From a virus (lineage: Duplodnaviria; Heunggongvirae; Uroviricota; Caudoviricetes), in IMG/VR virus record IMGVR_UViG_2671180547_000013: a DNA stretch of 47,489 nt; one strand, given 5' to 3'. The notes below the pieces were generated by a model. It saw only the letters and a list, made by a program, of their open reading frames with translations. It did no database searches and was not told where the DNA came from. Made by a program: the position numbers and the translations under genes. Below are positions 1-22,122 of the stretch, one piece after another (the first letter of the stretch is position 1; every line of letters starts with the position of its first letter).

Positions 1-1236
1 CTACGATAACCGCGCATTCAACATGGCTACCTGTTCGTCGTTCATGTCATCAATCCACATACCGTAAATTTCATACACCATCTGCGCAGTTTCATGCCCC
101 ATCTGGCTGGCTATAAACGCCGGGTTCGCTCCTGCCGTCAACAGCCAGCAGGCAAAAGTATGCCGCGTATGGTACGGATTACGGCGGCGAATACCAGCAC
201 GTTTTACTGCTGCATTCCATCTCGCACCCAAACTGCTTACCGAGTAATAAGGTTTCTGTTTTCCGTTACACACTCTGGGCATGAAAACAAAATGCAGTTT
301 TTGCTTTTCGGTTCTGCCGTACTCCCGATGATAAAAAGTGATTTCGCTTTTGCGATGATGCCCGGTCAGTTTGTATTGCTCCTTCAGTGCTTCAAGAGCA
401 GGCTGCAGTAGTGTTACCGTCCGGATCCCCGCATTTGTTTTTGGGGGACCGAACATATCCAGTATCGTCAGGTTTCTTCTGACATTCACAACTCCCTTCT
501 CGAAATCCACATCCTCCCACGCCAGAGCAGCCAGTTCCCCGTGACGAAGCCCGGAGTATACGGCAAATTTCCACAAGTTCTGGCTCTGTCCTTTTTCACT
601 TTCCATTAATGCATTGAATTCTGTTTTAGATAACGGGTCAGGCTTTATTCTGTTTCTCTGTAATTTCTTTACTCCTTCAAATGGTTTGGTTGATATAAAT
701 CCCGACTGATACGCAAAACGTAACAACGAACAGAGCAGGGCGATATAGTTATCAACTGTGCGCACGGTTCTTCCTTTTTTGTTGGATCTTGGATTATCCA
801 GGTAAAGCGTTTCTCCATGCAGCAGTTCATTCCGGTAGTTTAAGATATCGCTATAACGAATATGCGATATCGGAGTACTCTCACAAATTATTATCCTGAG
901 TGTTTTTAATTGTGATTTCGTTTTCTTCATTGTGTTTGTTGTTAACTCTGTTTCTTTAATTTTTGTCCAGATATCACAAAGCTCCCCGAACGTTTTTATG
1001 ACCCTCGTTGTCACCATTTTTGCCCCAGTGCTGGACTGGGGAAAACGTCTTAAATACTCAAACTCACCGGAATTGATTTCATGAACTATCAACGCTCTTA
1101 AATTCCCGGCTTTTTTAATGTTACTGTTAGTAACCTCCCAGCCTTTCAATGTTTCCCGACATCGTTTTCCTCGAAACATGAACCAGATGCGAATGTATTT
1201 ACCTCGAATCTCGACACCTGTTGGTAATTTAGACAT
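1..1236 (-). CDS. intR: Phage integrase, tyrosine recombinase (Rac IntR-like), 411 aa
   Basis: Full ORF from track; C-terminal catalytic region HTRHTF...MGHETAQMVYEIY with HxxR and Tyr nucleophile; position at prophage end next to xis-like gene; stop codon is the first 3 nt of the window. Confidence 0.9.
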   Translation of the reverse strand: MSKLPTGVEIRGKYIRIWFMFRGKRCRETLKGWEVTNSNIKKAGNLRALIVHEINSGEFEYLRRFPQSSTGAKMVTTRVIKTFGELCDIWTKIKETELTTNTMKKTKSQLKTLRIIICESTPISHIRYSDILNYRNELLHGETLYLDNPRSNKKGRTVRTVDNYIALLCSLLRFAYQSGFISTKPFEGVKKLQRNRIKPDPLSKTEFNALMESEKGQSQNLWKFAVYSGLRHGELAALAWEDVDFEKGVVNVRRNLTILDMFGPPKTNAGIRTVTLLQPALEALKEQYKLTGHHRKSEITFYHREYGRTEKQKLHFVFMPRVCNGKQKPYYSVSSLGARWNAAVKRAGIRRRNPYHTRHTFACWLLTAGANPAFIASQMGHETAQMVYEIYGMWIDDMNDEQVAMLNARLS

Positions 1237-1237
1237 A

Positions 1238-1477
1238 TCATGAGTCTTTGATAAACTGATTTATCTTTGGATAGTTATACCAGATAATCCCTCGCTTACT
1301 GTCTGGCTTCCCTAAAGGAGATACTCGTTTGAAGTGGAAGCCTTCCACCCAACAGTTCTGGCGGTATGCTTCAATTTGTCTGGCCCCCAGACCAGTGCGA
1401 AGCATCAGGCCGTATTCAACCATCCACTCTTCATTAAAGATTACTTGTGCCATCGCATCACCTCTGGCAGGCGCCAA
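1238..1477 (-). CDS. Excisionase-like small DNA-binding protein (start may be internal ATG at 1453)
   Basis: 79-aa ORF immediately upstream of int on the same strand; size and position typical of Xis (YdaQ position in Rac). Confidence 0.6.
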
Positions 1478-1552
1478 TGTTAGACTTAAATTGACGCCCG
1501 ATGTTGATTATTAATAATCAGCTATGAAGTTTTAATTTGAATACAATGCAAT

Positions 1553-1813
1553 TCACGAGGACTGAAGTTTCTCGCAATTAAAATTTATCAGTTTTACTTT
1601 CTGCTCTCTGGAAACGCCTGCTTCTTTTTTACCTGAGAGCATTTTTTCGCATTCTGATTTCGTTAGTTTAGATTTTGAATATCTTGTCCAGTTAGTAGGA
1701 GTGCCACCTTCCTTTTCAATAGTGGCGGTAATTTTATACATGAACACCTCCATTATTATTTCCAGTGGTTCGTTTATTTCATCGTTCGAGTGCTTCTTTT
1801 TCACTTCCACCAT
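1553..1813 (-). CDS. Small hypothetical protein (YdaC-position)
   Basis: 86-aa ORF from track between xis-like gene and ralR; no recognisable motif. Confidence 0.4.
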   Translation of the reverse strand: MVEVKKKHSNDEINEPLEIIMEVFMYKITATIEKEGGTPTNWTRYSKSKLTKSECEKMLSGKKEAGVSREQKVKLINFNCEKLQSS

Positions 1814-1940
1814 AACCGGTTCGGGATTCGCATCCGTTACACTTCGCTCGGTAATATCCTGAAATGGCTTTCACCGTTACTGATGGACAACCACAAAATG
1901 GACATGGTTTAACATTGTCATATCTCATAATTTTTCTCAT
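1779..1940 (-). CDS. ralR: RalR-like restriction-alleviation / DNase toxin small protein (53 aa; alternative start 1928)
   Basis: Hand translation of minus strand: MRKIMRYDNVKPCPFCGCPSVTVKAISGYYRAKCNGCESRTGYGGSEKEALER; Cys-rich zinc-ribbon-like; below the 60-aa cutoff of the ORF track; sits immediately upstream of recT as in Rac. Confidence 0.7.
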   Translation of the reverse strand: MRKIMRYDNVKPCPFCGCPSVTVKAISGYYRAKCNGCESRTGYGGSEKEALER

Positions 1941-1983
1941 AAAAATATTTCAAGTTGGCGGTGCATTACACCGCCAGGCTGAA

Positions 1984-2793
1984 TTATTCCTCTGAATTAT
2001 CGATTACACTGTATTCCCCGGTTAATACAGAGGAATCTGCAGGATCGATTGTCAGTGGTTCCTTTTCATCCATTGATACTGCACGCTGGATCTCAATTGA
2101 TACGGGCAGATATTTGAACAGGCGACGAATAGCCGTTTTCTTTGCCATTTCTTCCCAGTGAGTTACCCACGGCCCGTTATTACCAGCTTTACTCTGGCTG
2201 CGCACCAGCTCAATCTGTTTGCGCGTCATAACTTCAAACTGAGTACCTCCGTCTTTCAGTCTTGCGACAGCATAGACGTGGGTAACAGGGGCATCTTCGT
2301 TTTCTCCTGGGCGGTGTATTAACTTTTCATCAAGGCCAAATTCGAAATTAAACTCGTCACCTTCACGGACAACACGGGCTGACAGGCTGGCGATTTGACC
2401 TGAACGGCGAGCCAGATCAATCATGCCGCGATAGCCAATGATTAGCTGAACGTTTTTTTTACCGCTCTTTTCGTTTTTATTACCAAAAGGCAGTAAATAT
2501 GCATGACCGAGGGCGCTACCGGGCTCAAGTCCGAGCTGTGAACACTGTACGATTGCACTGACAAAACTCATAGTGTCACAGTTTCCTAACGCCGGAACTT
2601 TACGAATTTCTGTGGTGGCGATACGGATCATACGTTCAGCCGTCATATGGCGTGGAAGAGCTGCTGCCAGTTGCTCTTTCATTGATGGCTGGTTAATAAA
2701 ACTAATCACGTCGTTATTTTTAATTGCTGCTGGTGCACGGTTTCCCTGAGTTTTTTGCAGATCGGCTTTTGCGATTGGTGGTTGCTTAGTCAT
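1984..2793 (-). CDS. recT: RecT single-strand annealing recombinase (269 aa from [13 protein letters not shown])
   Basis: Translation matches RecT as recalled from E. coli Rac; start overlaps recE stop (ATG rc at 2791-2793). Confidence 0.9.
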
Positions 2794-5386
2794 TTGCATA
2801 TTCCTTAGCCCAGCGGGGCAGTGATAACGTCTTAATAGCTGGCCATTCATCGGTATTGAGGCAGTCAGCCAGGGTTCGCAGATTGCGGTGATATTCCAGC
2901 TGACCTGCCAGTTTTGCTTCTTCGCCCATCATGAAAATTTCAACCGGATAACGTCCGCATTCAATAGTTGTGCTGGCAACCAGAAAAACGAAAGTTGGCT
3001 GCACTCCAAACTGTGCTTCATAACCGTCACTGTAGAATGCATCCTGAACGTGATAGCGGTAGTCGTAATAAGCGGTTTTGAATCGTTGAATATCCGCCGT
3101 AGTTTTCACGTCCATGATCCAGTGAAATTCAGGGATAATTTTGTCCGGACGGCACCGACACAAAATTGCTGTTTCAGGATCTTCCCAGTAAATTGATGAT
3201 TCAGCGTGTCCGGCGCTTTCAACAAGCCATTGCCCCAGCGGCAAAGCCATAACGCTCTGATACATGAGTTCAATTTTCCGGCCTTCTTCGGCAGTGATAA
3301 CCGTTTTTCCTGTGCTTGCGCATTCCCTCAGAAACGCTTTCTCTTCTTCTTTTCCGGAGTTTGTCCGGCGGTTAAATTCAGGTGCTACGATAAAGCGGTT
3401 ACTGAATTCTTCCGGCTCAAGTACCCGGCAGTGGAAAGCGGTTCCTAAATCGAGCGTTTTTGTCTTTGTGGTGTCCACGGGGGCATTTTTACGCCACAAA
3501 TACAGTGCCGGAGTATCAGCAATGTCATCGAGCTGAGACTTACTGACACCGGGACCCGCGTGGTAATTCTCATTCGAAATTCCGTAATAAATACCTGGCT
3601 CTATGTCTTCTACGATTACGGGATCTGCGACTTCGCCAGTTTCATCACTGCAATCGCGATGCGGATCGCTGCCAGCATTCTCATTGTGCGGATGTTCAGC
3701 GCCTTCCATTTCCTCCGGATCATTTTCCTTAGCTTCAACCTGACTCTCTTCATCGAATGTTTCCTGGTATGTTGCGTCGCCCATCACCGCACCACAGTCA
3801 GGGCAGTTATCCCCGCCAGTCTGGCCGCAGGCATTGCAGGCTATTTCCGGTTCCTGTTGCACTACTGGCTCAGGTTGATTCATATCCGGGCTGGTTTTTT
3901 CCGTTTCTGGCTGGTTCTGGTACACACAATCGCGAGTCTGGATCCCCTTTACCCATTTCGGATCGTTCGGGTCGCTAATTCCGTCAACAAATTCACCACG
4001 TGATGCAGCAAGCAATTTATCGGCATCGACAGGATTTTTTGATGGAATGTTTTTCCGGGCTTCATGGAGTTCTGCCCGCAGTTCCTGATATTTCGCATCA
4101 ACAGAATTTACCTGTGACTGAGCATCCAGCGGCTGCGTGTCCTGATGATGTTCAGTTGCGTCCGGTTCCATTGTTTCAGCCTCTCCCTGTTCAACTGCCG
4201 TTGTTCCAGATGGTTGCGGTTTTTCTTCATCATCCTGTTTTCCTTCTTCTGTTACTCGCTGCGGCATCGGGGCAGAGGAGCGACCGCAGGCAATATCCAC
4301 GATTTCCGGATCAGGGTTGGCATGATCGGTTTCAGTCAGTACTTTGTTCAGATATTCAGTGACGTGCGCGGGGATGACCTCGATCCCAATTGGTGCTTCT
4401 TTTACGGACGCAACCACGATGGCGCGGGAATAATCCAGCCCGCCAGGCATGGTGATGAATTTGTCGCGGAAAACAGAAAAGGGCGGTTTATTTTCAGCGA
4501 TAATTTCCTCAATGCGTTTAGCGTGTGCCGGATGAAGGTTATAGATGTCCAGATCCATTGAACGGGCCAGTACGCCAGTGGCTACGTCCCGCGCCAGTGA
4601 CGTCAGATCGTGTACGAAACCTTCGCCGCGATCGGTGAGGTTTCCGCCGCCAGCATTAGCACCGGAAGCCGTGCGAGTGATGTGTGAAACACGATTACCC
4701 TTCATCCACTCTTTTGTCAGCAGTCCTCGATCGGTGTAGTCAGCGTTCAGGTATGCTTCGAAAAAAGCAGTTATCAGTCCCAGGTTTGAATTACCAGGAT
4801 TAGGGAAAACTTTGTCAGTGTCACGAACCAGTTTGTGGAGTTCGCGAATTTCCAGCGGGTCGAGCAGGCTGGTTTTGTGGGAAACAGCCAGGGCAGTAAC
4901 AGCCGGTAGTTCTTCAGCCCGAGCAATGTGTAATGCCTGGAGTCCGTCGCGTGAAACGTGCGTTACCGGTTTTTCGCTGCCGTGTTGAGCAAGCCAACGA
5001 ATGGGCAGTTCCTGGCCAGAAATTGGGAGTAGCATATTCTCCTCAATCTCAGGCATGTCTTCGCCGTTGACGTTGGTATTGCCTTGATAGTGAGCGTTGT
5101 CTGGTGCTGCTCCCGGTTTTAGTTCCCATGTCATGGAGTCTTTGCTGAGTTGATAGCGTTCACTCCAGGTAAAATCGATCTCACCTTCAGCGGGCAGGTC
5201 ATTAACGACAGGAAAATTCGTGGCAACAGCTTTAAAATAGCTGCTCAGTTTTTTACCTGACTTAACGATCAGGTAGTCCAGAGTGGCACAGGTCGATTCA
5301 AAATCGTTGCTTGCCCACAGGACGACGTCAGGTTCACCGGATGATTTTTTCGCTTTCCGTAACAGGAAGAGTGGTTTTGTGCTCAT
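2786..5386 (-). CDS. recE: RecE exonuclease VIII, 866 aa
   Basis: 866-aa ORF directly upstream of and overlapping recT; length and sequence consistent with Rac RecE. Confidence 0.9.
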
Positions 5387-5487
5387 TGTTTTTTAACCTC
5401 AACTCAGATTAAAATTCGTTTTGTTCAGTGAATGATCTTGCCGGATACACACTGTTCATAGCCTGCGCCATACGCAGGCTATTTCTT

Positions 5488-5763
5488 TCAGATTTCACCT
5501 TTTAATTTCATTGCAATTAGAGTTGCCAGAAATTCGGCTTTTTTTTCTGCGGGCAGATTCTTTCCGATATGCACCAGGCACATTTTTTTGACACCTTCAT
5601 CAAGTGTTTTTACGTTGCCTGATGGACCATCGATATCAACCACAGTGAATGGGGTTTCTTTATTTTCTGTTTTAATTACGTAGCCAATGCGCTTTCCTTC
5701 CAGATTCACCTCGTGAACAATGTCATCGGTAGTTACAACAGTGGCTTCATAATTGGTAATCAT
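5488..5763 (-). CDS. racC: RacC-like small protein (91 aa from MITNYEATVV)
   Basis: ORF from track; internal ATG at 5763 preceded by GGAGAA; synteny after recE. Confidence 0.7.
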   Translation of the reverse strand: MITNYEATVVTTDDIVHEVNLEGKRIGYVIKTENKETPFTVVDIDGPSGNVKTLDEGVKKMCLVHIGKNLPAEKKAEFLATLIAMKLKGEI

Positions 5764-5837
5764 GTTTTTCTCCTTAATTAAGGTTGAGCGAATACCTGCC
5801 ATTTCTGGCATAAATTCAGTTTCGAATAGTCAATTAA

Positions 5838-6008
5838 TTAAAGTTCATGTGCCATCTGGTCTTTTTCGGCACAAGCTTCACTGCAATATTTTCTCGGTTC
5901 GTCTTTTGATAAAATCCCGTGCATGAAGTGAAGCATTCTTTCAATAGCTTTGCTTTCTTCAACGTCTTTTTTGCAAAGGTGGTAAGCACATTTTATTTTC
6001 TTAGTCAT
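5838..6008 (-). CDS. ydaE: YdaE-like Cys-rich small protein (56 aa)
   Basis: Hand translation: [56 protein letters not shown]; start overlaps kilR stop (TGATG); below ORF-track cutoff. Confidence 0.65.
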   Translation of the reverse strand: MTKKIKCAYHLCKKDVEESKAIERMLHFMHGILSKDEPRKYCSEACAEKDQMAHEL

Positions 6009-6229
6009 CACCATGACTCCGCCTTTACAGGTAAACCATCACGACCGAGGAAGACTTTAATCATGCGGTCAGTAATGCATGTTTTTGTGGTCAGGTTACG
6101 AATATATAGTTTTCGCTTTTTAATATTGTTTGCCGAGGCAATATATGTCCGGCCTTCATGAAGAACATAATCGCCAGGAGTCACACACTGACGTGGTATT
6201 TCATCAGTTCCGAAGTGATGTGCAATCAT
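6008..6229 (-). CDS. kilR: KilR-like cell-division (FtsZ) inhibitor, 73 aa
   Basis: ORF from track, start at [10 protein letters not shown] with GGAGA Shine-Dalgarno 5 nt upstream; synteny between ydaE and sieB. Confidence 0.75.
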
Positions 6230-6670
6230 AATTATCTCCATTTTTACAAATGAACTTTGTTGATGCGGTGCCTGGTGCCTCCAGGTGACTGCAACCAGTT
6301 AACAATTACAGTCGGCTTTCCCACCCAAACCAATAAGGACTAACATGACTTTTAACTGTGCCACGTGCGCTTAGCCGCATTCACCGCATCACAAAATTCA
6401 CTTTAAAAAGGGCGGACATCAGCCGAACTTCAAGAAAAAAACTGATGCCGCCAGGACTACACACAGCAATGTCGTTATTTACAACCGGAGGCGCACTCCC
6501 ACCATTTAAATTTAACAGACAAGACCGACTCTTTATGGATATCGGAAATGCGCCTTCGTGTTGTGCCCGGTTTTATTTCACCACCTCCGGGCTTCGGTGG
6601 TCTCGGCTATACCCCTACAGCGAGAGCTTGTGTTAACATTTCAATACCCTTACAGTTGAGAGTTATTGAT

Positions 6671-7159
6671 ATGTTGGATGTATTTACTCCATTGTTGAAA
6701 CTTTTTGCTAACGAGCCACTCGAAATACTTATGTATACGATTATCATTTTTGGTCTCACTCTCTGGCTGATACCGAAAGAGTTTACTGTCGCATTCAATG
6801 CTTATACTGAAATACCTTGGCTCTTTCAGATTATCGTTTTTGCCTTTTCTTTCGTGGTCGCCATTTCCTTCTCAAGATTGCGAGCACATATTCAAAAGCA
6901 TTATTCATTACTACCAGAGCAACGAGTATTGCTTCGTTTATCTGAGAAAGAAATCGCTGTATTTAAAGATTTCCTTAAAACAGGAAATCTTATTATCACT
7001 TCTCCTTGCCGTAACCCGGTTATGAAAAAATTAGAACGGAAGGGCATCATTCAACATCAGAGTGATAGCGCAAACTGTTCTTATTATCTCGTCACCGAAA
7101 AATACTCCCATTTTATGAAGTTATTCTGGAACAGCAGGAGTAGACGTTTTAATCGTTAG
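6671..7159 (+). CDS. sieB: SieB superinfection exclusion protein (162 aa from MLDVFTPLL)
   Basis: Hydrophobic N-terminal segments (IIIFGLTLWLIP, FQIIVFAFSFVVAI); matches SieB as recalled; ATG at 6671. Confidence 0.8.
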   Translation: MLDVFTPLLKLFANEPLEILMYTIIIFGLTLWLIPKEFTVAFNAYTEIPWLFQIIVFAFSFVVAISFSRLRAHIQKHYSLLPEQRVLLRLSEKEIAVFKDFLKTGNLIITSPCRNPVMKKLERKGIIQHQSDSANCSYYLVTEKYSHFMKLFWNSRSRRFNR

Positions 7160-7311
7160 CTTACTGTGTGCTTCTCCAACCATCGGCGCGCACCAGTTTC
7201 GGTTTTAAATGTTTTGCTTTTGGTATACGTCATGGCAGTGAACGTTCCATCCTGGTTGGGGAACACGCCGCACACCAGGGATTCGTTGTTGCCGAGGTCG
7301 ATTTTTTGCAT
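7156..7311 (-). CDS. ydaG: YdaG-like small protein (51 aa)
   Basis: Hand translation: MQKIDLGNNESLVCGVFPNQDGTFTAMTYTKSKTFKTETGARRWLEKHTVS; not in ORF track (under 60 aa); overlaps sieB stop by 4 nt. Confidence 0.5.
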   Translation of the reverse strand: MQKIDLGNNESLVCGVFPNQDGTFTAMTYTKSKTFKTETGARRWLEKHTVS

Positions 7312-7321
7312 TTTGCGAATC

Positions 7322-7456
7322 TCACATCTTGTTGCTGTGTATAGCGACTTCTGCCTGCCAGAGATCCCAGTCGTTGCTGCGTAAAGCCTGCACAGCCTGG
7401 TTGTAAGTGATACCGCAACAATCCATCAAATACTGAACTACTTCGTAATGCACCAT
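7322..7456 (-). CDS. ydaF: YdaF-like small protein (44 aa from MVHYEVVQYL)
   Basis: Part of 60-aa track ORF 7322..7504; internal ATG at 7456. Confidence 0.45.
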   Translation of the reverse strand: MVHYEVVQYLMDCCGITYNQAVQALRSNDWDLWQAEVAIHSNKM

Positions 7457-7624
7457 CTTATCTCTCCCCTTAACGCCGGGTGGCGGAACTGAAACCTGCT
7501 GCACTGCAAAATCTGAACCCTGCCGTCATGTTCATACGCCTCGGGCTGGCTACTTAACCCCTGACCACTGCCTGGTAACTCGAAGTATTGCCCTGCGTTC
7601 TGTGGGGCGGGGTGGGTTGGTAGG

Positions 7625-7675
7625 TATATAATGTACTTTGTGTTCATTGATGTAAAGTACTATAAGTACATTTTG
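7625..7675. promoter_or_regulatory. Putative left operator/promoter (OL/PL-like) with ATGTACT-type half sites
   Basis: ATGTACT at 7631-7637, AAGTACT at 7655-7661, AGTACAT (reverse complement of ATGTACT) at 7665-7671; TATATAAT at 7625-7632; same heptamer recurs in the repressor/cro intergenic region. Confidence 0.4.
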
Positions 7676-7746
7676 TGTGTAAAAAAATGAGATGGGATAA
7701 AGTGAAGCACAAACCCGGAGGGGGACGCTACCGGATTTATGCTGGT

Positions 7747-8166
7747 TTAAGAGGCTTTTTGTTTTTTCTTTCGTGCTAGCTCTTCGTAAATTGCATTGTA
7801 CTTCTGTTTTTTCTCCTCAAGAGTTTTTAAAAGTTCATCTGTCTCACTGTCAGGGAGCTCGTCCAGAAGGTCAATGATGATTTTTTGTCTTGGATTTAAC
7901 TCCTGATAGAAACGTACCTGTCCACTTTCTTCTGTATCCTCTCCCAAAAGATAGGTTGGTGTTGTTCCAATGAGTGTTGCTAATTCCCTTAATTTCTCTC
8001 GGCGAGGAATTGTTTCGCCATTAAACCATTTGCTAACCGCTTTTGGTGTTAATTTCATTCGACGGGCAATTTCTGCCTGCCTTCCATGTTGTTCATAACC
8101 AGCGTTTTCACAGGCTAGCGCAAGCCTACTGGCGAACTCTTTACGCGCTTTATCTTCATGAACCAT
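7747..8166 (-). CDS. Prophage repressor, XRE-family HTH (CI/RacR-position); start could be GTG at 8184
   Basis: HTH segment GRQAEIARRMKLTPKAVSKWFNGETIPRREKLRELATL; divergent from Cro-like gene; flanked by operator-like repeats. Confidence 0.75.
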   Translation of the reverse strand: MVHEDKARKEFASRLALACENAGYEQHGRQAEIARRMKLTPKAVSKWFNGETIPRREKLRELATLIGTTPTYLLGEDTEESGQVRFYQELNPRQKIIIDLLDELPDSETDELLKTLEEKKQKYNAIYEELARKKKQKAS

Positions 8167-8245
8167 AAGTTCAATGATATTCACTCTTGAATGTACTGTC
8201 AGTTCTGTTATAGCATGTACTCAAAGTTCACATTGTGAGGGTGAT
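8167..8245. promoter_or_regulatory. Putative right operator/promoter region (OR, PR/PRM-like)
   Basis: Divergent intergenic region; ATGTACT direct repeats at 8191-8197 and 8215-8221 (24 bp apart); TTGAAT ... TATAGC candidate -35/-10; GAGGGTGA Shine-Dalgarno before ATG 8246. Confidence 0.45.
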
Positions 8246-8500
8246 ATGAACCAGAAAACACTTGAAGATGTAATCAAAACTGTTCGCGTTTCTGTTGTGG
8301 CCGACGTTTGTGGTGTCAGCCAAAGAGCAATCTACAAATGGATGGATAACGGAAAATTGCCTCGCACAGAATATACCGGCGAAACAAATTACGCTGAAAA
8401 AATCGCTCATGCATCAAACGGATTATTTTCTGCTGATGTAATTTTAACTATTGGCAGAAATAAAACTACTACGAAAAAGCTGATGGGAGTTGATTCATGA
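8246..8500 (+). CDS. Cro-like small HTH regulator (YdaS-position)
   Basis: HTH segment VADVCGVSQRAIYKWMDNGKLPR; first gene rightward from the repressor; ATG 8246 with Shine-Dalgarno. Confidence 0.65.
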   Translation: MNQKTLEDVIKTVRVSVVADVCGVSQRAIYKWMDNGKLPRTEYTGETNYAEKIAHASNGLFSADVILTIGRNKTTTKKLMGVDS

Positions 8501-8919
8501 AAATCAAGCATGAGCACATCGAGTCAGTGTTGTTAGCCCTGGCAGCCGAAAAAGGGCAGGCATGGGTAGCCAATGCCATTACTGAAGAATATCTGCGCCA
8601 GGGGGGCGGCGAATTGCCCCTGGTACCAGGCAAGGACTGGAATAATCAGCAGAATATCTATCACCGTTGGTTGAAAGGTGAAACGAAAACGCAAAGAGAA
8701 AAAATTCAGAAGCTGATCCCAGCAATTCTGGCAATCCTTCCGCGCGAGCTGCGTCACCGACTCTGCATCTTCGATACCCTGGAACGCCGTGCATTACTGG
8801 CGGCGCAGGAAGCGTTAAGTACGGCAATTGATGCGCATGATGATGCAGTCCAAGCCGTTTACCGGAAAGCGCATTTCAGCGGCGGCGGGTCTTCCGACGA
8901 TTCTGTCATTGTTCATTAA
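8497..8919 (+). CDS. ydaT: YdaT-like protein (CII-position regulator/toxin family), 140 aa
   Basis: ATGA overlap with the Cro-like gene; 140 aa as recalled for Rac YdaT; synteny. Confidence 0.55.
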   Translation: MKIKHEHIESVLLALAAEKGQAWVANAITEEYLRQGGGELPLVPGKDWNNQQNIYHRWLKGETKTQREKIQKLIPAILAILPRELRHRLCIFDTLERRALLAAQEALSTAIDAHDDAVQAVYRKAHFSGGGSSDDSVIVH

Positions 8920-8931
8920 GCAAAAGTTTCC

Positions 8932-9789
8932 ATGCTGTTTGTGCTTATTCTAAGCCACCGGGCAGCATCATACGGGGCAATTATGGCCGCATTACCATAC
9001 ATGCAACTGTACATAGCTGATTACCTGGCTGACACCATGCATTTGTCAGCAGAGGAGCATGGTGCGTATTTGTTGCTGATGTTCAATTACTGGCAAACAG
9101 GAAAGCCAATACCTAAAAACAGGCTGGCAAAAATTGCCCGTCTGACTAACGAGCGATGGGCTGATGTTGAACCATCCTTGCAGGAGTTTTTTTGCGATAA
9201 CGGCGAGGAATGGGTGCATCTTCGGATTGAGGAAGATCTGGCATCAGTCAGGGAAAAATTAACCAAAAAATCAGCCGCAGGAAAAGCATCTGTTCAGGCC
9301 AGAAGAAGCAGAAAGGAAGCAGATGTTCAAACAAAACAAGAGAGAAATTTAACAGGTGTTCAAACAGATGTTGAAGTGGTGTTTGAACATGATGTCAACA
9401 CAAAGGCAACTAATAAAGATACAGATAAAGATCTAAAAACAGATCCCCCCCTAAATCCCCCCCGGGGGAATCGAGGTGTCAAAAAGTTTGACCCTCTGGA
9501 TATTGCTTTGCCGAACTGGATTTCTGTCTCGCTTTGGCGTGAGTGGGTTGAATTTCGCCAGGCATTGCGAAAACCGATTCGAACGGAGCAGGGCGCTAAC
9601 GGGGCGATACGGGAGCTGGAAAAATTCCGCCAGCAGGGTTTTTCACCTGAGCAGGTGATTCGACACAGCATCGCCAATGAATACCAGGGCTTGTTCGCGC
9701 CGAAAGGTGTTCGACCTGAGACGTTACTCCGACAGGTTAACACCGTCTCGTTACCGGATAGTGCGATCCCGCCAGGCTTCAGGGGGTAA
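8932..9789 (+). CDS. ydaU: YdaU-like replication initiation-associated protein (DUF1376-type), 285 aa
   Basis: 285-aa ORF at the replication position preceding the DnaC-like loader; length matches Rac YdaU as recalled. Confidence 0.6.
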   Translation: MLFVLILSHRAASYGAIMAALPYMQLYIADYLADTMHLSAEEHGAYLLLMFNYWQTGKPIPKNRLAKIARLTNERWADVEPSLQEFFCDNGEEWVHLRIEEDLASVREKLTKKSAAGKASVQARRSRKEADVQTKQERNLTGVQTDVEVVFEHDVNTKATNKDTDKDLKTDPPLNPPRGNRGVKKFDPLDIALPNWISVSLWREWVEFRQALRKPIRTEQGANGAIRELEKFRQQGFSPEQVIRHSIANEYQGLFAPKGVRPETLLRQVNTVSLPDSAIPPGFRG

Positions 9790-9795
9790 CTGACC

Positions 9796-10236
9796 ATGAA
9801 AAATATTGCGACAGGCGACGTTCTTGAACGTATCCGCAGACTGGCCCCGTCACATGTAACCGCGCCATTCAAGACGGTAGCGGAGTGGCGCGAGTGGCAA
9901 CTTTCCGAAGGCCAGAAACGTTGTGAGGAGATCAACCGTCAGAATCGTCAGTTGCGGGTGGAAAAAATTCTGAATCGCTCTGGCATCCAGCCATTGCACC
10001 GCAAATGCTCGTTTTCGAATTACCAGGTGCAGAACGAAGCGCAGCGATACGCGTTGAGTCAGGCGAAATCCATCGCTGATGAACTGATGACCGGGTGTAC
10101 AAATTTTGCGTTCAGCGGAAAACCTGGTACCGGGAAGAACCACTTAGCGGCAGCTATCGGGAATCGCCTGCTGAAAGACGGTCAGACAGTGATTGTGGTT
10201 ACCGTGGCTGATGTTATGAGTGCCCTGCACGCCAGC
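9796..10236 (+). CDS. ydaV: DnaC/IstB-like helicase loader ATPase, partial (C-terminus lost in N run)
   Basis: Walker A motif FSGKPGTGKNHLAAAIG; ORF runs into the N gap at 10237. Confidence 0.8.
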
Positions 10237-19227: not shown

Positions 19228-19251
19228 AGCTCGCTACGGCGAGCTTTTTAT
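19228..19251 (+). terminator. Intrinsic terminator after the lipoprotein pair
   Basis: AGCTCGC-TACG-GCGAGCT followed by TTTTTATATT. Confidence 0.6.
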
Positions 19252-19353
19252 ATTGCATCGTCTCCAGCATATATATCAATTAAGGCTCTGATTGATGTGT
19301 CTGAAAGCCTACACATAATAACTATGCCATCCGTTCCGTGCGGAGGTGAGGCT

Positions 19354-19569
19354 ATGAAATCCATGGACAAAATTTCAACAGGCATTGCCTACGGCACCTC
19401 CGCAGGCAGTGCTGGCTACTGGTTTTTACAGTTGCTCGATAGAGTAACTCCGTCACAGTGGGCTGCAATCGGTGTGCTGGGTAGTCTGGTATTTGGCCTG
19501 CTGACGTACCTGACAAACCTTTATTTCAAGATTAAAGAAGATAAGCGCAAGGCTGCGAGAGGTGAATAA
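19354..19569 (+). CDS. essD: Holin (phage 21 S / EssD-like pinholin), 71 aa
   Basis: Two hydrophobic segments, charged C-terminus [13 protein letters not shown]; GGAGGTGA Shine-Dalgarno; directly precedes endolysin. Confidence 0.85.
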
Positions 19570-20066
19570 TGCCTCCATCATTACGAAAAGTCGTTGCTGC
19601 TGCTATTGGTGGCGGAGCAATTGCTATAGCATCAGTGTTAATCACTGGCCCAAGTGGTAACGATGGTCTGGAAGGTGTCAGCTACATACCATACAAAGAT
19701 ATTGTTGGTGTATGGACTGTATGTCACGGGCATACAGGAAAAGACATCATGCTCGGTAAAACGTATACCAAAGCAGAATGCAAAACACTCTTGAATAAAG
19801 ACCTTGCCACTGTCGCCAGACAAATTAACCCGTACATCAAAGTCGATATACCGGAAACAACGCGCGGCGCTCTTTACTCATTCGTTTACAACGTGGGTGC
19901 TGGCAATTTCAGAACATCGACGCTTCTTCGCAAAATAAACCAGGGCGATATCAAAGGCGCATGTGATCAGCTACGTCGCTGGACATATGCTGGCGGTAAG
20001 CAATGGAAAGGTCTCATGACTCGTCGTGAGATTGAGCGTGAAATCTGTTTGTGGGGTCAGCAATGA
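19569..20066 (+). CDS. rrrD: SAR endolysin (lysozyme, GH24-like), 165 aa
   Basis: N-terminal signal-anchor-release segment [20 protein letters not shown]; lysozyme-like core; position between holin and Rz. Confidence 0.85.
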
Positions 20067-20527
20067 ACAGAGTAACCGCGATTATCTCCGCTCTGGTTAT
20101 CTGCATCATCGTCTGCCTGTCATGGGCTGTTAATCATTACCGTGATAACGCCATTACCTACAAAGCCCAGCGCGACAAAAATGCCAGAGAACTGAAGCTG
20201 GCGAACGCGGCAATTACTGACATGCAGATGCGTCAGCGTGATGTTGCTGCGCTCGATGCAAAATACACGAAGGAGTTAGCTGATGCGAAAGCTGAAAATG
20301 ATGCTCTGCGTGATGATGTTGCCGCTGGTCGTCGTCGGTTGCACATCAAAGCAGTCTGTCAGTCAGTGCGTGAAGCCACCACCGCCTCCGGCGTGGATAA
20401 TGCAGCCTCCCCCCGACTGGCAGACACCGCTGAACGGGATTATTTCACCCTCCGGGAACGACTGGTAATGATGCAGGCCCAACTTGAAGGTGCTCAGCAA
20501 TACATAACCGAGCAGTGTTTAAAGTAA
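20063..20527 (+). CDS. rzpD: Rz i-spanin, 154 aa
   Basis: N-terminal TM segment, coiled-coil body, embedded Rz1 in the +1 frame. Confidence 0.85.
20283..20468 (+). CDS. rzoD: Rz1 o-spanin lipoprotein embedded in Rz, 61 aa
   Basis: Lipobox VVGC, proline-rich ([16 protein letters not shown]); wholly inside Rz in another frame. Confidence 0.85.
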
Positions 20528-20664
20528 AATCTTAACTACAATATGATTCATTTTGATGATTGTTTCATAAGGAACAGTGAAGTAAGATCTAAGAGGAGTT
20601 AAATTTTATACAGTATAATCATAATATTGCAGCAAGGTGGTTATAATTGAAAGAATATTTAGAT

Positions 20665-22122
20665 ATGAATACATCTCATGTAAGAGTTGTTACTCATATG
20701 TGTGGGTTCCTGGTTTGGCTCTATAGTCTTTCAATGTTGCCACCAATGGTTGTAGCATTGTTTTATAAAGAAAAAAGCCTGTTCGTTTTCTTTATAACTT
20801 TCGTTATATTTTTTTGCATTGGTGGCGGAGCGTGGTATACAACTAAGAAATCTGGCATTCAATTACGTACCCGTGATGGGTTTATTATAATTGTAATGTT
20901 TTGGATTTTGTTTTCTGTTATTAGTGCATTCCCTTTATGGATTGACTCAGAACTTAATTTAACGTTCATTGATGCTCTGTTTGAAGGGGTTTCTGGAATA
21001 ACAACAACAGGAGCAACTGTAATTGATGATGTTAGTTCATTACCTCGGGCATATTTGTACTATCGGTCACAGTTAAATTTTATAGGTGGTTTAGGAGTTA
21101 TTGTTCTGGCGGTTGCAGTATTGCCATTATTGGGTATTGGTGGTGCAAAGCTTTATCAGTCAGAAATGCCGGGGCCATTTAAGGATGACAAACTCACTCC
21201 CCGCCTGGCCGATACGTCACGGACACTGTGGATAACTTATTCTTTATTAGGTATTGCTTGTATTGTCTGTTATAGACTTGCAGGAATGCCTTTGTTTGAT
21301 GCTATTTGTCACGGGATTTCCACAGTTTCGCTTGGTGGTTTCTCAACTCATAGCGAGAGTATCGGATATTTTAATAACTATTTGGTTGAGCTGGTGGCTG
21401 GTTCTTTTTCCCTGCTATCGGCTTTCAACTTCACTCTTTGGTATATTGTTATTAGCAGAAAAACGATAAAACCTTTAATCAGAGATATTGAACTTCGTTT
21501 CTTTCTGTTAATAGCCTTAGGGGTGATCATTGTTACCTCTTTCCAGGTCTGGCATATAGGTATGTATGACTTGCATGGAAGTTTTATTCATTCGTTTTTT
21601 CTTGCCAGCTCCATGCTCACTGATAATGGTTTAGCTACGCAGGATTATGCAAACTGGCCCACGCACACGATAGTGTTTTTGCTGTTGTCAAGTTTCTTTG
21701 GGGGATGTATAGGTTCAACCTGTGGTGGAATTAAGTCACTTCGATTTCTTATACTTTTCAAACAAAGCAAACACGAGATAAATCAGCTTTCTCATCCCAG
21801 AGCGTTGTTGAGTGTAAATGTAGGAGGGAAGATAGTTACAGATCGTGTAATGAGGTCTGTATGGAGTTTCTTTTTTCTTTATACTCTCTTCACGGTGTTT
21901 TTTATACTGGTGTTAAATGGTATGGGATATGATTTTCTTACATCATTTGCAACAGTGGCTGCATGTATTAATAATATGGGATTAGGTTTTGGGGCTACTG
22001 CATCGTCATTCGGAGTGCTTAATGACATTGCAAAATATTTAATGTGCATAGCTATGATTCTTGGTCGCCTTGAAATTTATCCTGTTATTATATTGTTTTC
22101 AGGTTTTTTTTGGCGCTCCTAA
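20665..22122 (+). CDS. trkG: TrkG potassium uptake membrane protein (moron)
   Basis: Start MNTSHVRVVTHMCGFLVWLYSLSML; polytopic membrane protein; low-GC gene after Rz as in Rac. Confidence 0.9.
   Translation: MNTSHVRVVTHMCGFLVWLYSLSMLPPMVVALFYKEKSLFVFFITFVIFFCIGGGAWYTTKKSGIQLRTRDGFIIIVMFWILFSVISAFPLWIDSELNLTFIDALFEGVSGITTTGATVIDDVSSLPRAYLYYRSQLNFIGGLGVIVLAVAVLPLLGIGGAKLYQSEMPGPFKDDKLTPRLADTSRTLWITYSLLGIACIVCYRLAGMPLFDAICHGISTVSLGGFSTHSESIGYFNNYLVELVAGSFSLLSAFNFTLWYIVISRKTIKPLIRDIELRFFLLIALGVIIVTSFQVWHIGMYDLHGSFIHSFFLASSMLTDNGLATQDYANWPTHTIVFLLLSSFFGGCIGSTCGGIKSLRFLILFKQSKHEINQLSHPRALLSVNVGGKIVTDRVMRSVWSFFFLYTLFTVFFILVLNGMGYDFLTSFATVAACINNMGLGFGATASSFGVLNDIAKYLMCIAMILGRLEIYPVIILFSGFFWRS

Follow-up and report, generated by a model that had tools for sequence, protein, structure and literature searches.

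A probable HK022-operator-type immunity switch on an 868-bp exchangeable cassette in a full-length Rac-family prophage

Which repressor-operator system controls the early genes of the prophage in IMG/VR record IMGVR_UViG_2671180547_000013 (47,489 nucleotides, in the following referred to as the window), and what is the meaning of the short motif ATGTACT, which recurs on both sides of its repressor gene? A first-pass annotation, made from the letters of the sequence, had proposed this heptamer as a shared operator motif. According to the present analysis, the region is very probably a lambdoid immunity switch with operators of the HK022 type. It lies on an 868-bp exchangeable cassette (7623-8490; OL, repressor, OR and cro) within a full-length prophage of the Rac family at ttcA. 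It is a conventional lambda-style lysis/lysogeny switch of the already known HK022 type.

All heptamer positions were borne out by reading the sequence and by a pattern search. ATGTACT occurs at 7631-7637 (plus strand) and 7665-7671 (minus strand) on the left, and at 8191-8197 and 8215-8221 (both plus strand) on the right, where the two copies form the predicted direct repeat with a spacing of 24 bp; the one-mismatch variant AAGTACT is located at 7655-7661. The total over the window does not exceed chance (5 copies versus 4.24 expected), and short repeats in two copies are common, which would fit the view that the heptamers are functionless chance repeats in AT-rich intergenic DNA. However, four of the five copies fall within the 203 bp that make up the intergenic regions on either side of the repressor gene (binomial P ~1.7e-9 under uniform placement). 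ATGTACT is one half-site (TGTACT) with one flanking A, and the repeated unit is a 15-bp pseudo-palindrome, TGWAC-N5-GTWCA, which is present five times at the switch. The same motif is thus found on both sides, as proposed, with the dyad as its real unit in place of the heptamer. Exact dyads are confined to the switch (3 in the window versus 0.22 expected, 14-fold enriched); with up to one mismatch, 14 are present in the window versus 4.35 expected, five of them at the switch.

On the left side, a second operator cluster is formed by the dyads starting at 7632 and 7656, which overlap the minus-strand hexamers TTTACA/CATTAT of a leftward promoter. This PL-like promoter (7628-7656, minus strand; -35 TTTACA at 7656-7651, 17-nt spacer, -10 CATTAT at 7633-7628) was found by the promoter scan and reads into the ydaG/ydaF...kilR...recET...ralR operon. 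OL1 (7632-7646, TGTACTTTGTGTTCA) is an exact dyad in the PL spacer, overlaps the PL -10 and aligns to an annotated oL site of HK022; the HK022 sites were taken from the annotation of X16093 and from the summary given in PMC8053113. OL2 (7656-7670, AGTACTATAAGTACA; one mismatch) is located 24 bp from OL1, abuts the PL -35 and is aligned with the second oL site in the HK022 annotation. It includes both the AAGTACT (7655) and the AGTACAT (7665) heptamers, so that the three heptamers listed earlier for this side, which were placed correctly, make up two operators and not three. The promoter hexamers lie at the offsets from OL1 that are annotated for HK022 pL; the values are equal here and in X16093 (-10 at -4, -35 at +19, OL2 at +24), and the -35 hexamer TTTACA is invariant in alignment A2.

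Three dyads (8159, 8192 and 8216) between the divergent repressor and cro genes overlap the predicted promoters PR and PRM. Two of them had been recognized before, and both are real; the third, OR3 (8159-8173, TGAACCATAAGTTCA), had been overlooked. It is a perfect dyad without any mismatch and covers both the ATG of the repressor gene (8166-8164) and the predicted start of PRM. OR2 (8192-8206, TGTACTGTCAGTTCT; one mismatch) lies between the PR -35 and -10, covers the PRM -35 and aligns to HK022 oR2, TGTACTATCAGTTCC. OR1 (8216-8230, TGTACTCAAAGTTCA) is again exact; it is located just downstream of the PR -10, covers the expected transcription start and is aligned with the third oR site in the HK022 annotation. 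The distance from OR1 to OR2 is 24 bp, and OR3 follows 33 bp further on. The PR-like promoter (8187-8214, plus strand; -35 TTGAAT at 8187-8192, 16 nt, extended -10 TGtTATAGC at 8206-8214) was recognized by reading the sequence. The consensus promoter scan did not return it because the last T of the -10 is missing; TATAGC fits the consensus poorly and depends on the extended -10 TG. Its hexamers lie at +28 (-35) and +50 (-10) from OR3, as in the annotated HK022 pR, and the offsets of OR2 (+33), OR1 (+57) and the cro ATG (+87) also equal those in X16093. The invariant columns of alignments A2 and A3 fall on half-sites and promoter hexamers.

The PRM-like maintenance promoter (8174-8202, minus strand; -35 CTGACA at 8202-8197, 17 nt, -10 TATCAT at 8179-8174) matches the consensus at 10 of 12 positions in the promoter scan. 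According to the sequence read, 7 nt separate its -10 from the repressor ATG, and a Shine-Dalgarno sequence is not present. With a predicted transcription start at about 8166, the repressor mRNA would be leaderless. In the record of phage 24B, the pRM start is annotated 1 nt before the cI ATG, and leaderless repressor mRNAs were reported for RacR (PMC9638921) as well as for lambda cI and PaaR2 (PMC8630535). At the other end of the gene, a stable RNA hairpin (7706-7743, minus strand) starts 4 nt after the stop codon (fold of 7672-7750, minus strand: -19.4 kcal/mol, z = -6.05) and is a candidate terminator or 3' stabilizer of the repressor transcript. The consensus scan yielded no intrinsic terminator after the repressor gene; the strong hairpin has no directly following U-run.

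The operator layout recurs in more distant elements. The OR triplet with its spacings of 24 and 33 bp is kept in Klebsiella phage 2b, a Salmonella phage, two Salmonella prophages (short repressors, 62-65% identical) and a metagenome variant (repressor 89% identical). The OL pair at 24 bp occurs in all compared relatives but phage 2b, and in the Salmonella prophages it is kept even with higBA inserted between the repressor gene and OL. Position and spacing of the sites are conserved alongside repressors that are only 47-65% identical, which would not be expected of chance repeats. Polymorphism avoids the half-sites as well: in a set of 50 haplotypes, variation affects 5 of the 40 half-site positions compared to 33 of the 93 remaining intergenic positions (Fisher p = 0.007), a test of limited power with close haplotypes that are 97-100% identical. 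Each of these five positions differs in one or two haplotypes only. OR3 and OR2 are invariant in the 50 haplotypes, the population variants of OL1 are mainly found in the N5 spacer, and the commonest variant of OR1 (8222; 4/50 haplotypes) also lies in the spacer, while half-site position 8219 varies in one haplotype. The idea of chance repeats is thereby already refuted computationally, and its probability is close to nil. The assumption of OL and OR clusters that flank a CI-like repressor gene at the leftward and rightward early promoters, in turn, agrees with the HK022 register and with the layout in the diverged relatives, and is supported by K-12 Rac, too, where the same 2+3 arrangement is built from a separate RacR motif.

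The repressor gene (7747-8166, minus strand; start at 8166 according to the PGAP annotation in strain 1428) encodes a protein of 139 aa, which consists of an HK022/933W-type helix-turn-helix (HTH) N-terminal domain and a DicA-like helical C-terminal domain. In tblastn searches, it was 100% identical to the 'CI repressor' of phage Tritos, 47.5% identical to HK022 CI in the N-terminal domain and 50.7% identical to 933W-type CI over residues 1-73. The alignment to the CI proteins of HK022, 933W and Klebsiella stops before the S24 domain, and Pfam detected only HTH_3/HTH families in the repressor and no S24 peptidase domain (PF00717). An AlphaFold model is all-helical (mean pLDDT 83); Foldseek comparison of this model with the PDB returned generic HTH_3 folds only and no informative match for the C-terminal helices, and a sequence search of solved structures returned only the N-terminal domain of P22 C2 (E 0.006). 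In lambdoid CI repressors, the S24 domain is presumed to mediate cooperativity. As the C-terminal domain is not of the S24 type, the cooperative and looping behavior of HK022 is not transferable to this repressor.

The DNA-binding part can be compared residue by residue. The recognition helix reads TPKAVSKWFNG here versus TPKAISKWFNG in the counterpart, and K42 and K46 are invariant across the aligned repressors. In the 933W repressor, both lysines were modelled as base contacts, and the exchange K46A abolished specific DNA binding (PMC3317979). The base preferences of 933W (G2, A/T3, A4, C5, T/C6) agree with the family half-site, in which G2, W3, A4 and C5 are conserved to 100% in 66 half-sites from 7 elements. 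It might be argued that the dyads mainly serve the Cro-like protein or some different factor as binding sites, or are mere promoter architecture, and that the repressor recognizes some other sequence: its C-terminal half is DicA-like and the DicA region uses a TTAG/CTAA-type motif, and Cro and repressor have a common xKW motif in the recognition helix, so that Cro very probably binds the dyads, too. However, specificity is set by the DNA-binding domain, which here is of the HK022/933W type with K46 and K42 conserved (PMC3317979), and the homologous 15-bp sites in 933W and HK022 are repressor sites. An arrangement in which the repressor recognizes some other sequence is very improbable. Binding of the repressor to these operators and repression of PL and PR, for which homology and conservation speak, are the preferred reading.

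The borders of the cassette were obtained by blastn of K-12 Rac versus the window, which showed collinearity over 1-7622 (98.7%) and 8491-10236 (99.4%) and no match between. The 868 bp replace racR-ydaS of K-12 and, judged by sequence comparison, are a heteroimmune replacement. The Cro-like gene (8246-8500, plus strand; 84 aa; Shine-Dalgarno GAGGGTG at 8236-8242) encodes a protein 62% identical to HK022 Cro (E 2e-34). A longer ORF of 108 aa (8174-8500), given as Cro in the Tritos annotation, was rejected; the start at 8246 was preferred because a Shine-Dalgarno sequence is present and the HK022 cro offset is matched. Homology of the Cro-like protein to YdaS was rejected as well (pairwise E 0.028). 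Next follows ydaT (8497-8919, plus strand), a CII-analogue with 139/140 residues as in K-12 YdaT (Pfam YdaT_toxin; PHROG CII-like activator). A YdaT-box, TTGATT-CATGAA-AATCAA (8490-8507), lies over the ydaT start codon and falls precisely at the right-hand joint of the cassette. It matches TTGATT-N6-AATCAA exactly, which is the consensus for YdaT of CP-933P (PMC9986795), and the site was footprinted in K-12 Rac as ATGATTCATGAAAATCAA (PMC11879457). The genes kilR and ralR are retained in the window; the presence of ydaT, kilR and ralR follows from the collinearity of 1-7622 with K-12 Rac. Of the toxic functions which the first-pass annotation expected to be released by derepression, kilR, ralR and ydaT (99% identical to K-12) are indeed found, and ydaS is not, as the gene in its place is Cro-like.

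A toxin-repressor module RacR/YdaS/YdaT as in K-12, in which RacR would use ATGTACT as its operator, would be suggested by the K-12 Rac chromosomal site, by the flanking genes with their nearly unchanged ydaT, and by the earlier naming of the rightward genes as ydaS/ydaT-type. The proteins and the operator words contradict this: the likeness of the repressor to RacR is limited to 33 HTH residues (36% identity), and the Cro-like protein fails against YdaS as described. The RacR dyad WTAGGC-N3-GCCTAW, present five times around racR in K-12, does not occur in window positions 7000-9000, which include 7623-8490, and the immunity region of K-12, in turn, has no TGWAC dyad. Such a module is exceedingly improbable here.

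K-12 Rac is cryptic, and it could be asked whether the cassette is a decayed relic with a motif pattern left from recent common ancestry; with 80 IMG/VR copies 97-100% identical, conservation among the copies alone is weak evidence. Against decay, the prophage in the window is full-length, from the integrase through the tail fibres, and an identical repressor gene is expressed in Tritos, a viable plaque-forming phage, in which CI was expressed 24-fold above the prophage background (PMC9928086). Strain LF82 carries Tritos, and CRISPRi silencing of LF82 prophage repressors was detrimental (bioRxiv 10.64898/2026.01.05.697630). Together with the essential role of racR in K-12, this observation also lends indirect support to the prediction of the first-pass annotation that repressor loss would be lethal. 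The operator layout is moreover kept across genera, and a relic is very improbable. Two cargo ORFs at 11774-13882 gave no match with PADLOC.

For the functional switch, the following mechanism is proposed. A dimer of the 139-aa repressor would bind the TGWAC-N5-GTWCA dyads via its HK022/933W-type helix-turn-helix. Occupation of OL1 and OL2 over PL would switch off the ydaG-ydaF-kilR-recET-ralR operon, and occupation of OR1 and OR2 over PR would switch off cro-ydaT and the replication genes. Binding to OR3, over the start of the probably leaderless repressor mRNA, would result in negative autoregulation. In the lytic state, the HK022-like Cro would be expected on the same dyads. What we infer for this locus is operator binding by the repressor, the order in which the sites are filled, cooperativity, looping between OL and OR, and the position of the PRM start. 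A LexA-controlled antirepressor route was considered and rejected: the core CTGT-N8-ACAG is absent from the whole window, and the best 20-mer of the window matches the LexA consensus at 14/20 positions only.

It is conceivable, though doubtful, that the cassette is a natural domain swap, in which the HK022-type DNA-binding domain, Cro and operators were combined with a DicA-type C-terminus in place of the LexA-like domain, with the 24/33-bp geometry kept. If so, the switch, which occurs in ~19% of complete E. coli genomes, would be RecA-insensitive and respond to a non-SOS trigger. Cooperativity between adjacent sites or looping between OL and OR would proceed through an unrelated oligomerization domain, and the hosts could gain cross-immunity to HK022-type phages. 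The wider interest lies in how a repressor without a LexA-like domain is inactivated, and whether it still cooperates, on an operator arrangement taken over from a strongly cooperative repressor of the S24 type. Exact coordinates of five operators and three promoters are now given. Many 'Rac' prophages have the HK022-type switch instead of racR-ydaS of K-12; results on the RacR operator, YdaS toxicity and RacR cross-talk are therefore not transferable to them, and the biology of YdaT, kilR and ralR probably is. No publication on the operators of this particular cassette was found.

Compared to K-12 Rac, in which racR is essential (PMC5700373, PMC5700377), the prophage backbone, the integration site and the flanking genes are the same, and ydaT with the YdaT-box is common to both. 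Two operators on the left and three in the divergent intergenic region, the last over the repressor ATG, are also found in K-12 (PMC9638921). In contrast, the repressor and Cro sequences are unrelated beyond the HTH, and the K-12 operator word WTAGGC-N3-GCCTAW stands for another immunity specificity.

The cassette has several features in common with DicA/DicC of the Qin prophage. Both repressors are short (~135-139 aa) and carry a helical tail behind the HTH, and in residues 30-137 the present one is 29% identical to K-12 DicA (E 5e-15). The position upstream of a DUF1391...division-inhibitor operon is syntenic, and the repressor gene is in each case flanked on both sides by its own motif. In Tritos, the cassette is located at the dicA-dicC position of Qin. 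The operator word (TTAG/CTAA-type) and Cro (DicC) are different, and with 56.8 bits against the NCBIfam DicA model NF007257, under the cut-off of 101, the repressor falls outside the DicA subfamily.

In the phages 933W and phi24B, the operators are also 15 bp long and have (C/T)G(A/T)AC half-sites. Their OR consists of OR1, OR2 and OR3, the last of which covers the cI start, and they have two OL sites only, which gives five natural operators in all, as here (PMC3317979). The N-terminal domain of their repressor (50.7%), including K42 and K46, is conserved, and EMSA and DNase I experiments have measured operator binding of the 933W repressor (PMC3317979). In contrast to the repressor studied here, that of 933W has an S24 domain, with reportedly non-cooperative binding; the OR spacing is 24-25 and 31-32 bp compared to 24 and 33 bp, and Cro and CII are not those found here.

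The closest correspondence is to HK022 (X16093, AF069308), whose 15-bp operators are likewise built from TGAAC/TGTAC half-sites. Both have a pair of OL sites at a distance of 24 bp and three OR sites with spacings of 24 and 33 bp, and in both the repressor ATG is covered by an OR3 of identical sequence (TGAACCATAAGTTCA). HK022 CI differs by its length of 235 aa and its S24 LexA-like C-terminal domain, compared to 139 aa and a DicA-like helical domain here; its binding to the operators of OR and OL is reported to be cooperative (PMC8053113, citing Carlson and Little 1993). According to the same paper, HK022 possesses an OL3 and an extra site ~300 bp downstream of OR, the candidates for which lie at positions 3210 and 2164 of the HK022 sequence L003 (PMC8053113). 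No dyad with up to 2 mismatches was found in 7671-7746 for an OL3, and no convincing one in 8231-8900 for a far-right operator. After cro, HK022 carries a lambda-type cII with pE sites, where ydaT with its YdaT-box is found here. Because the recognition helix and the operators are alike, it is plausible, as far as the sequences tell, that this prophage and HK022 have the same immunity specificity and would repress each other.

The heptamer ATGTACT, which the first-pass annotation had read as the operator unit of an immunity switch, was located by reading 7300-8800 and by a pattern search of the window at 7631 (+), 7665 (-), 8191 (+) and 8215 (+), and its one-mismatch form AAGTACT at 7655, all as claimed. 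Its total over 47.5 kb is at chance level (5 found, 4.24 expected); four of the five copies fall within 203 bp, the combined length of the intergenic regions on either side of one gene (binomial P ~1.7e-9). Repeat finding extended the heptamer to ATGTACT-N4-GTTC, and inspection revealed a 15-bp pseudo-palindrome, TGWAC-N5-GTWCA, as the underlying unit. Without mismatches, this dyad occurs three times in the window, always in the immunity region (0.22 expected; no shuffle gave three), and with at most one mismatch 14 times (4.35 expected), five of them in the immunity region. The 15-bp dyad sites are OL1 (7632-7646, TGTACTTTGTGTTCA), OL2 (7656-7670, AGTACTATAAGTACA), OR3 (8159-8173, TGAACCATAAGTTCA), OR2 (8192-8206, TGTACTGTCAGTTCT) and OR1 (8216-8230, TGTACTCAAAGTTCA). 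ATGTACT is one half-site of such a dyad with a flanking A. The heptamer is thus clustered as described, but it represents just one arm of the operator; 7655 and 7665, counted before as separate left-hand sites, are the two arms of OL2. Both right-hand sites are present, but a third one, OR3 over the repressor start codon, had been overlooked.

The gene between both clusters (7747-8166, - strand, with the PGAP start of strain 1428, the closest annotated genome) encodes a repressor of 139 amino acids with HTH_3-type Pfam matches only. In tblastn searches of phage genomes it was 100% identical to the 'CI repressor' of the live Escherichia phage Tritos of strain LF82, and showed 60-63% identity to repressors of Klebsiella and Salmonella phages (58-73% of the query, N-terminal residues), 47.5% to HK022 CI and, for residues 1-73, 50.7% to CI of the 933W/phi24B family. 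The aligned recognition helix reads TPKAVSKWFNG here and TPKAISKWFNG in HK022, and K42 and K46 are invariant. In a model of the 933W repressor both lysines contact bases, and a K46A mutant lacks specific DNA binding (PMC3317979). The C-terminal 50 residues did not align to the S24 peptidase domain of HK022/933W-type repressors. Residues 30-137 resemble K-12 DicA (29%, E 5e-15), and the NCBIfam DicA model scored below its cut-off. In the AlphaFold model (mean pLDDT 83), a five-helix N-terminal domain and a low-confidence linker (residues 79-82) are followed by three C-terminal helices, the final one of 33 residues. Judged by its sequence, the repressor would be a chimera of an HK022-type DNA-binding domain and a DicA-type tail, placed on operators whose geometry is that of an S24-type repressor with cooperative binding. 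This is the sole point of some novelty here, and it raises questions of induction, cooperativity and cross-immunity.

The divergent Cro-like gene (8246-8500, + strand) encodes a small HTH protein of 84 amino acids, which is 62% identical to HK022 Cro (E 2e-34) and shares an xKW motif with the HTH of the repressor. An E. coli protein record (P0013, 123 aa, 'transcriptional regulator, partial') joins the N-terminal HTH of Cro to the repressor from a common G-E-T motif on; either the two divergent HTH genes have recombined or the record is misassembled.

In the annotated HK022 immunity region (X16093), oL has two 15-bp sites and oR three, the pL and pR hexamers are marked as well, and all offsets recur in the window. 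Relative to the OL1 start, these are the pL -10 (-4, window 7628), the pL -35 (+19, 7651) and the second oL site (+24, 7656); relative to the OR3 start, they are the pR -35 (+28, 8187), OR2 (+33, 8192), the pR -10 (+50, 8209), OR1 (+57, 8216) and the cro ATG (+87, 8246). The OR3 sequence is the same in both, and in the OL and OR DNA alignments the invariant columns correspond to the half-sites, to the TTTACA -35 and to the -10 regions. A promoter scan placed PL (-35 TTTACA, 7656-7651; -10 CATTAT, 7633-7628) and the maintenance promoter PRM (-35 CTGACA, 8202-8197; -10 TATCAT, 8179-8174; 10/12 matches) on the - strand; PR lies on the + strand (-35 TTGAAT, 8187-8192; extended -10 TGtTATAGC, 8206-8214). 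Between the predicted PRM -10 and PR -35, position 8183 is A in the window and G in 49 of 50 haplotypes.

By homology, repressor dimers most likely occupy all five dyads. OL1 and OL2 would block PL and silence the leftward operon with kilR, recET and ralR, and OR1 and OR2 would block PR and silence cro-ydaT and the replication genes. PRM transcription would start at or adjoining the ATG at 8166 and yield a leaderless repressor mRNA, and OR3, covering this start, would exert negative autoregulation. A leaderless start is annotated for phi24B cI, and leaderless mRNAs were reported for lambda cI and PaaR2 (PMC8630535) and for RacR (PMC9638921). As the PRM -35 lies inside OR2, neither activation nor repression was assigned to OR2 occupancy. 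Cro, given the common xKW motif, would be expected on the same sites as the repressor. A strong hairpin at 7706-7743 (- strand, -19.4 kcal/mol, z = -6) starts 4 nt past the repressor stop codon; it has no adjoining U-tract, and its apical part holds the population variants 7722, 7723 and 7725. It may terminate or stabilise the repressor transcript.

In a dyad scan, three OR sites spaced 24 + 33 bp were found in HK022, Klebsiella phage 2b, Salmonella phage ABTNLsp11242 and Tritos, in two Salmonella prophages with short repressors (62-65% identical) and in a metagenome variant (repressor 89% identical). Except for Klebsiella phage 2b, all these relatives scanned also carry the 24-bp OL pair. In 933W-type phages, in contrast, the OR spacings are 24-25 + 31-32 bp. 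In the two Salmonella prophages a higB-higA toxin-antitoxin pair separates the repressor gene from the OL pair (L090 3053-3720; L091 3088-3755), and the OL pair is kept at the leftward promoter despite this insertion, whose site matches the position of rexAB in lambda. Among 33 pooled sites, G2, W3, A4 and C5 each occur in 66/66 half-sites, T1 in 53/66 and T/C6 in 62/66; base preferences measured for the 933W repressor agree with this pattern (PMC3317979). Polymorphism was compared across the window and 79 fetched loci (most of them IMG/VR contigs), 80 sequences that fall into 50 distinct haplotypes. Of the 40 half-site positions 5 vary, each in just one or two haplotypes, versus 33 of 93 elsewhere in the intergenic regions (Fisher p = 0.007). 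The frequent variants of the cassette map to the N5 spacers and to the stretches that separate the operators.

K-12 Rac is collinear with window 1-7622 (98.7%; intR, xisR, rcbA, ralR, recT, recE, racC, ydaE, kilR, sieB, ydaF, ydaG) and 8491-10236 (99.4%; ydaT, ydaU, ydaV), and has no counterpart of 7623-8490. Because of this, and because the repressor and Cro are unlike RacR and YdaS, the annotated interval coincides very nearly with a heteroimmune cassette exchanged into a Rac backbone. A 1001-bp query (7500-8500, cassette plus ~120 bp of left flank) was covered to at least 80% in 1047 of 5426 complete E. coli genomes. As head and tail genes through to the tail fibres are present, this is a full-length prophage and not a 23-kb remnant as in K-12. 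The 9 kb at 10960-20083 have no K-12 counterpart and mark the internal deletion by which K-12 Rac became cryptic; 20083-21883 shares 99% identity with the rzpR/rzoR-trkG segment of K-12. Masked bases (10237-10486) break a ydaV-like gene and also affect the beginning of the following ORF. A two-gene cargo (11774-13882; 363 and 333 aa), missing from K-12 Rac and strain 1428, gave weak matches below cut-off to a HEPN/RES N-terminal domain and to GNAT, respectively, and no hit in PADLOC; the two genes may form an uncharacterised toxin or defence pair.

Identity of the cassette with the RacR/YdaS module was rejected: the likeness to RacR is limited to 33 HTH residues, and the Cro-like protein has no detectable homology to YdaS (E 0.028). 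Of the genes listed earlier as freed on derepression, kilR, ralR and ydaT are right, but ydaS is wrong. In K-12 Rac, RacR dyads (WTAGGC-N3-GCCTAW) occur at two places to the left of racR and at three in the region of racR and ydaS. Those three have been footprinted, and O3 among them covers the racR ATG (PMC9638921); the published RacR work consulted deals with these intergenic operators. The left dyads (ATAGGTAATGCCTAA and ATAGGCTATGCCTAA, 25 bp apart; K-12 locus L001, 8630-8669), just inside the cassette boundary, look like an OL pair for RacR. Qin dicA has its own TTAG/CTAA-type motif on either side. The plan of two sites left and three right, the last over the ATG, is therefore common to prophages of this group, with an operator word specific to each cassette.

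The gene following the Cro-like gene is ydaT, whose product matches K-12 YdaT in 139 of 140 residues. A perfect YdaT-box (TTGATT-CATGAA-AATCAA, 8490-8507) covers its start codon and coincides exactly with the right-hand recombination joint of the cassette; K-12 homology restarts at 8491, and K-12 reads ATGATT there. Tritos keeps the same box, although the gene that follows carries a Rha-family regulator annotation. Lethality of derepression is plausible, because racR is essential in K-12 (PMC5700373, PMC5700377), YdaT expression is toxic (PMC11879457), the prophage looks complete, and CRISPRi of LF82 prophage repressors, among whose prophages is Tritos with the identical repressor protein, was detrimental (bioRxiv 10.64898/2026.01.05.697630). 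Transcription of the Tritos CI gene in LF82 is 24-fold over prophage background, and Tritos forms plaques; induction by ciprofloxacin or trimethoprim was reported for Gally and Cyrano only, and Tritos production was slightly reduced by trimethoprim (PMC9928086). This drug response agrees with a repressor lacking a LexA-like cleavage domain, but it is not proof. No LexA box was found within the window.

No paper on the operators of this cassette was found, and Tritos annotates its parts plainly as CI and Cro. Unlike HK022 CI, the repressor lacks an S24 C-terminal domain, and the accessory OL3 and far-right sites of HK022 have no convincing counterpart here at up to two mismatches. On sequence grounds, the cassette (7623-8490) is nevertheless homologous to the HK022 immunity region and should work likewise: operator word, geometry, repressor DNA-binding domain and Cro all agree, which makes the initial interpretation essentially correct and unsurprising.
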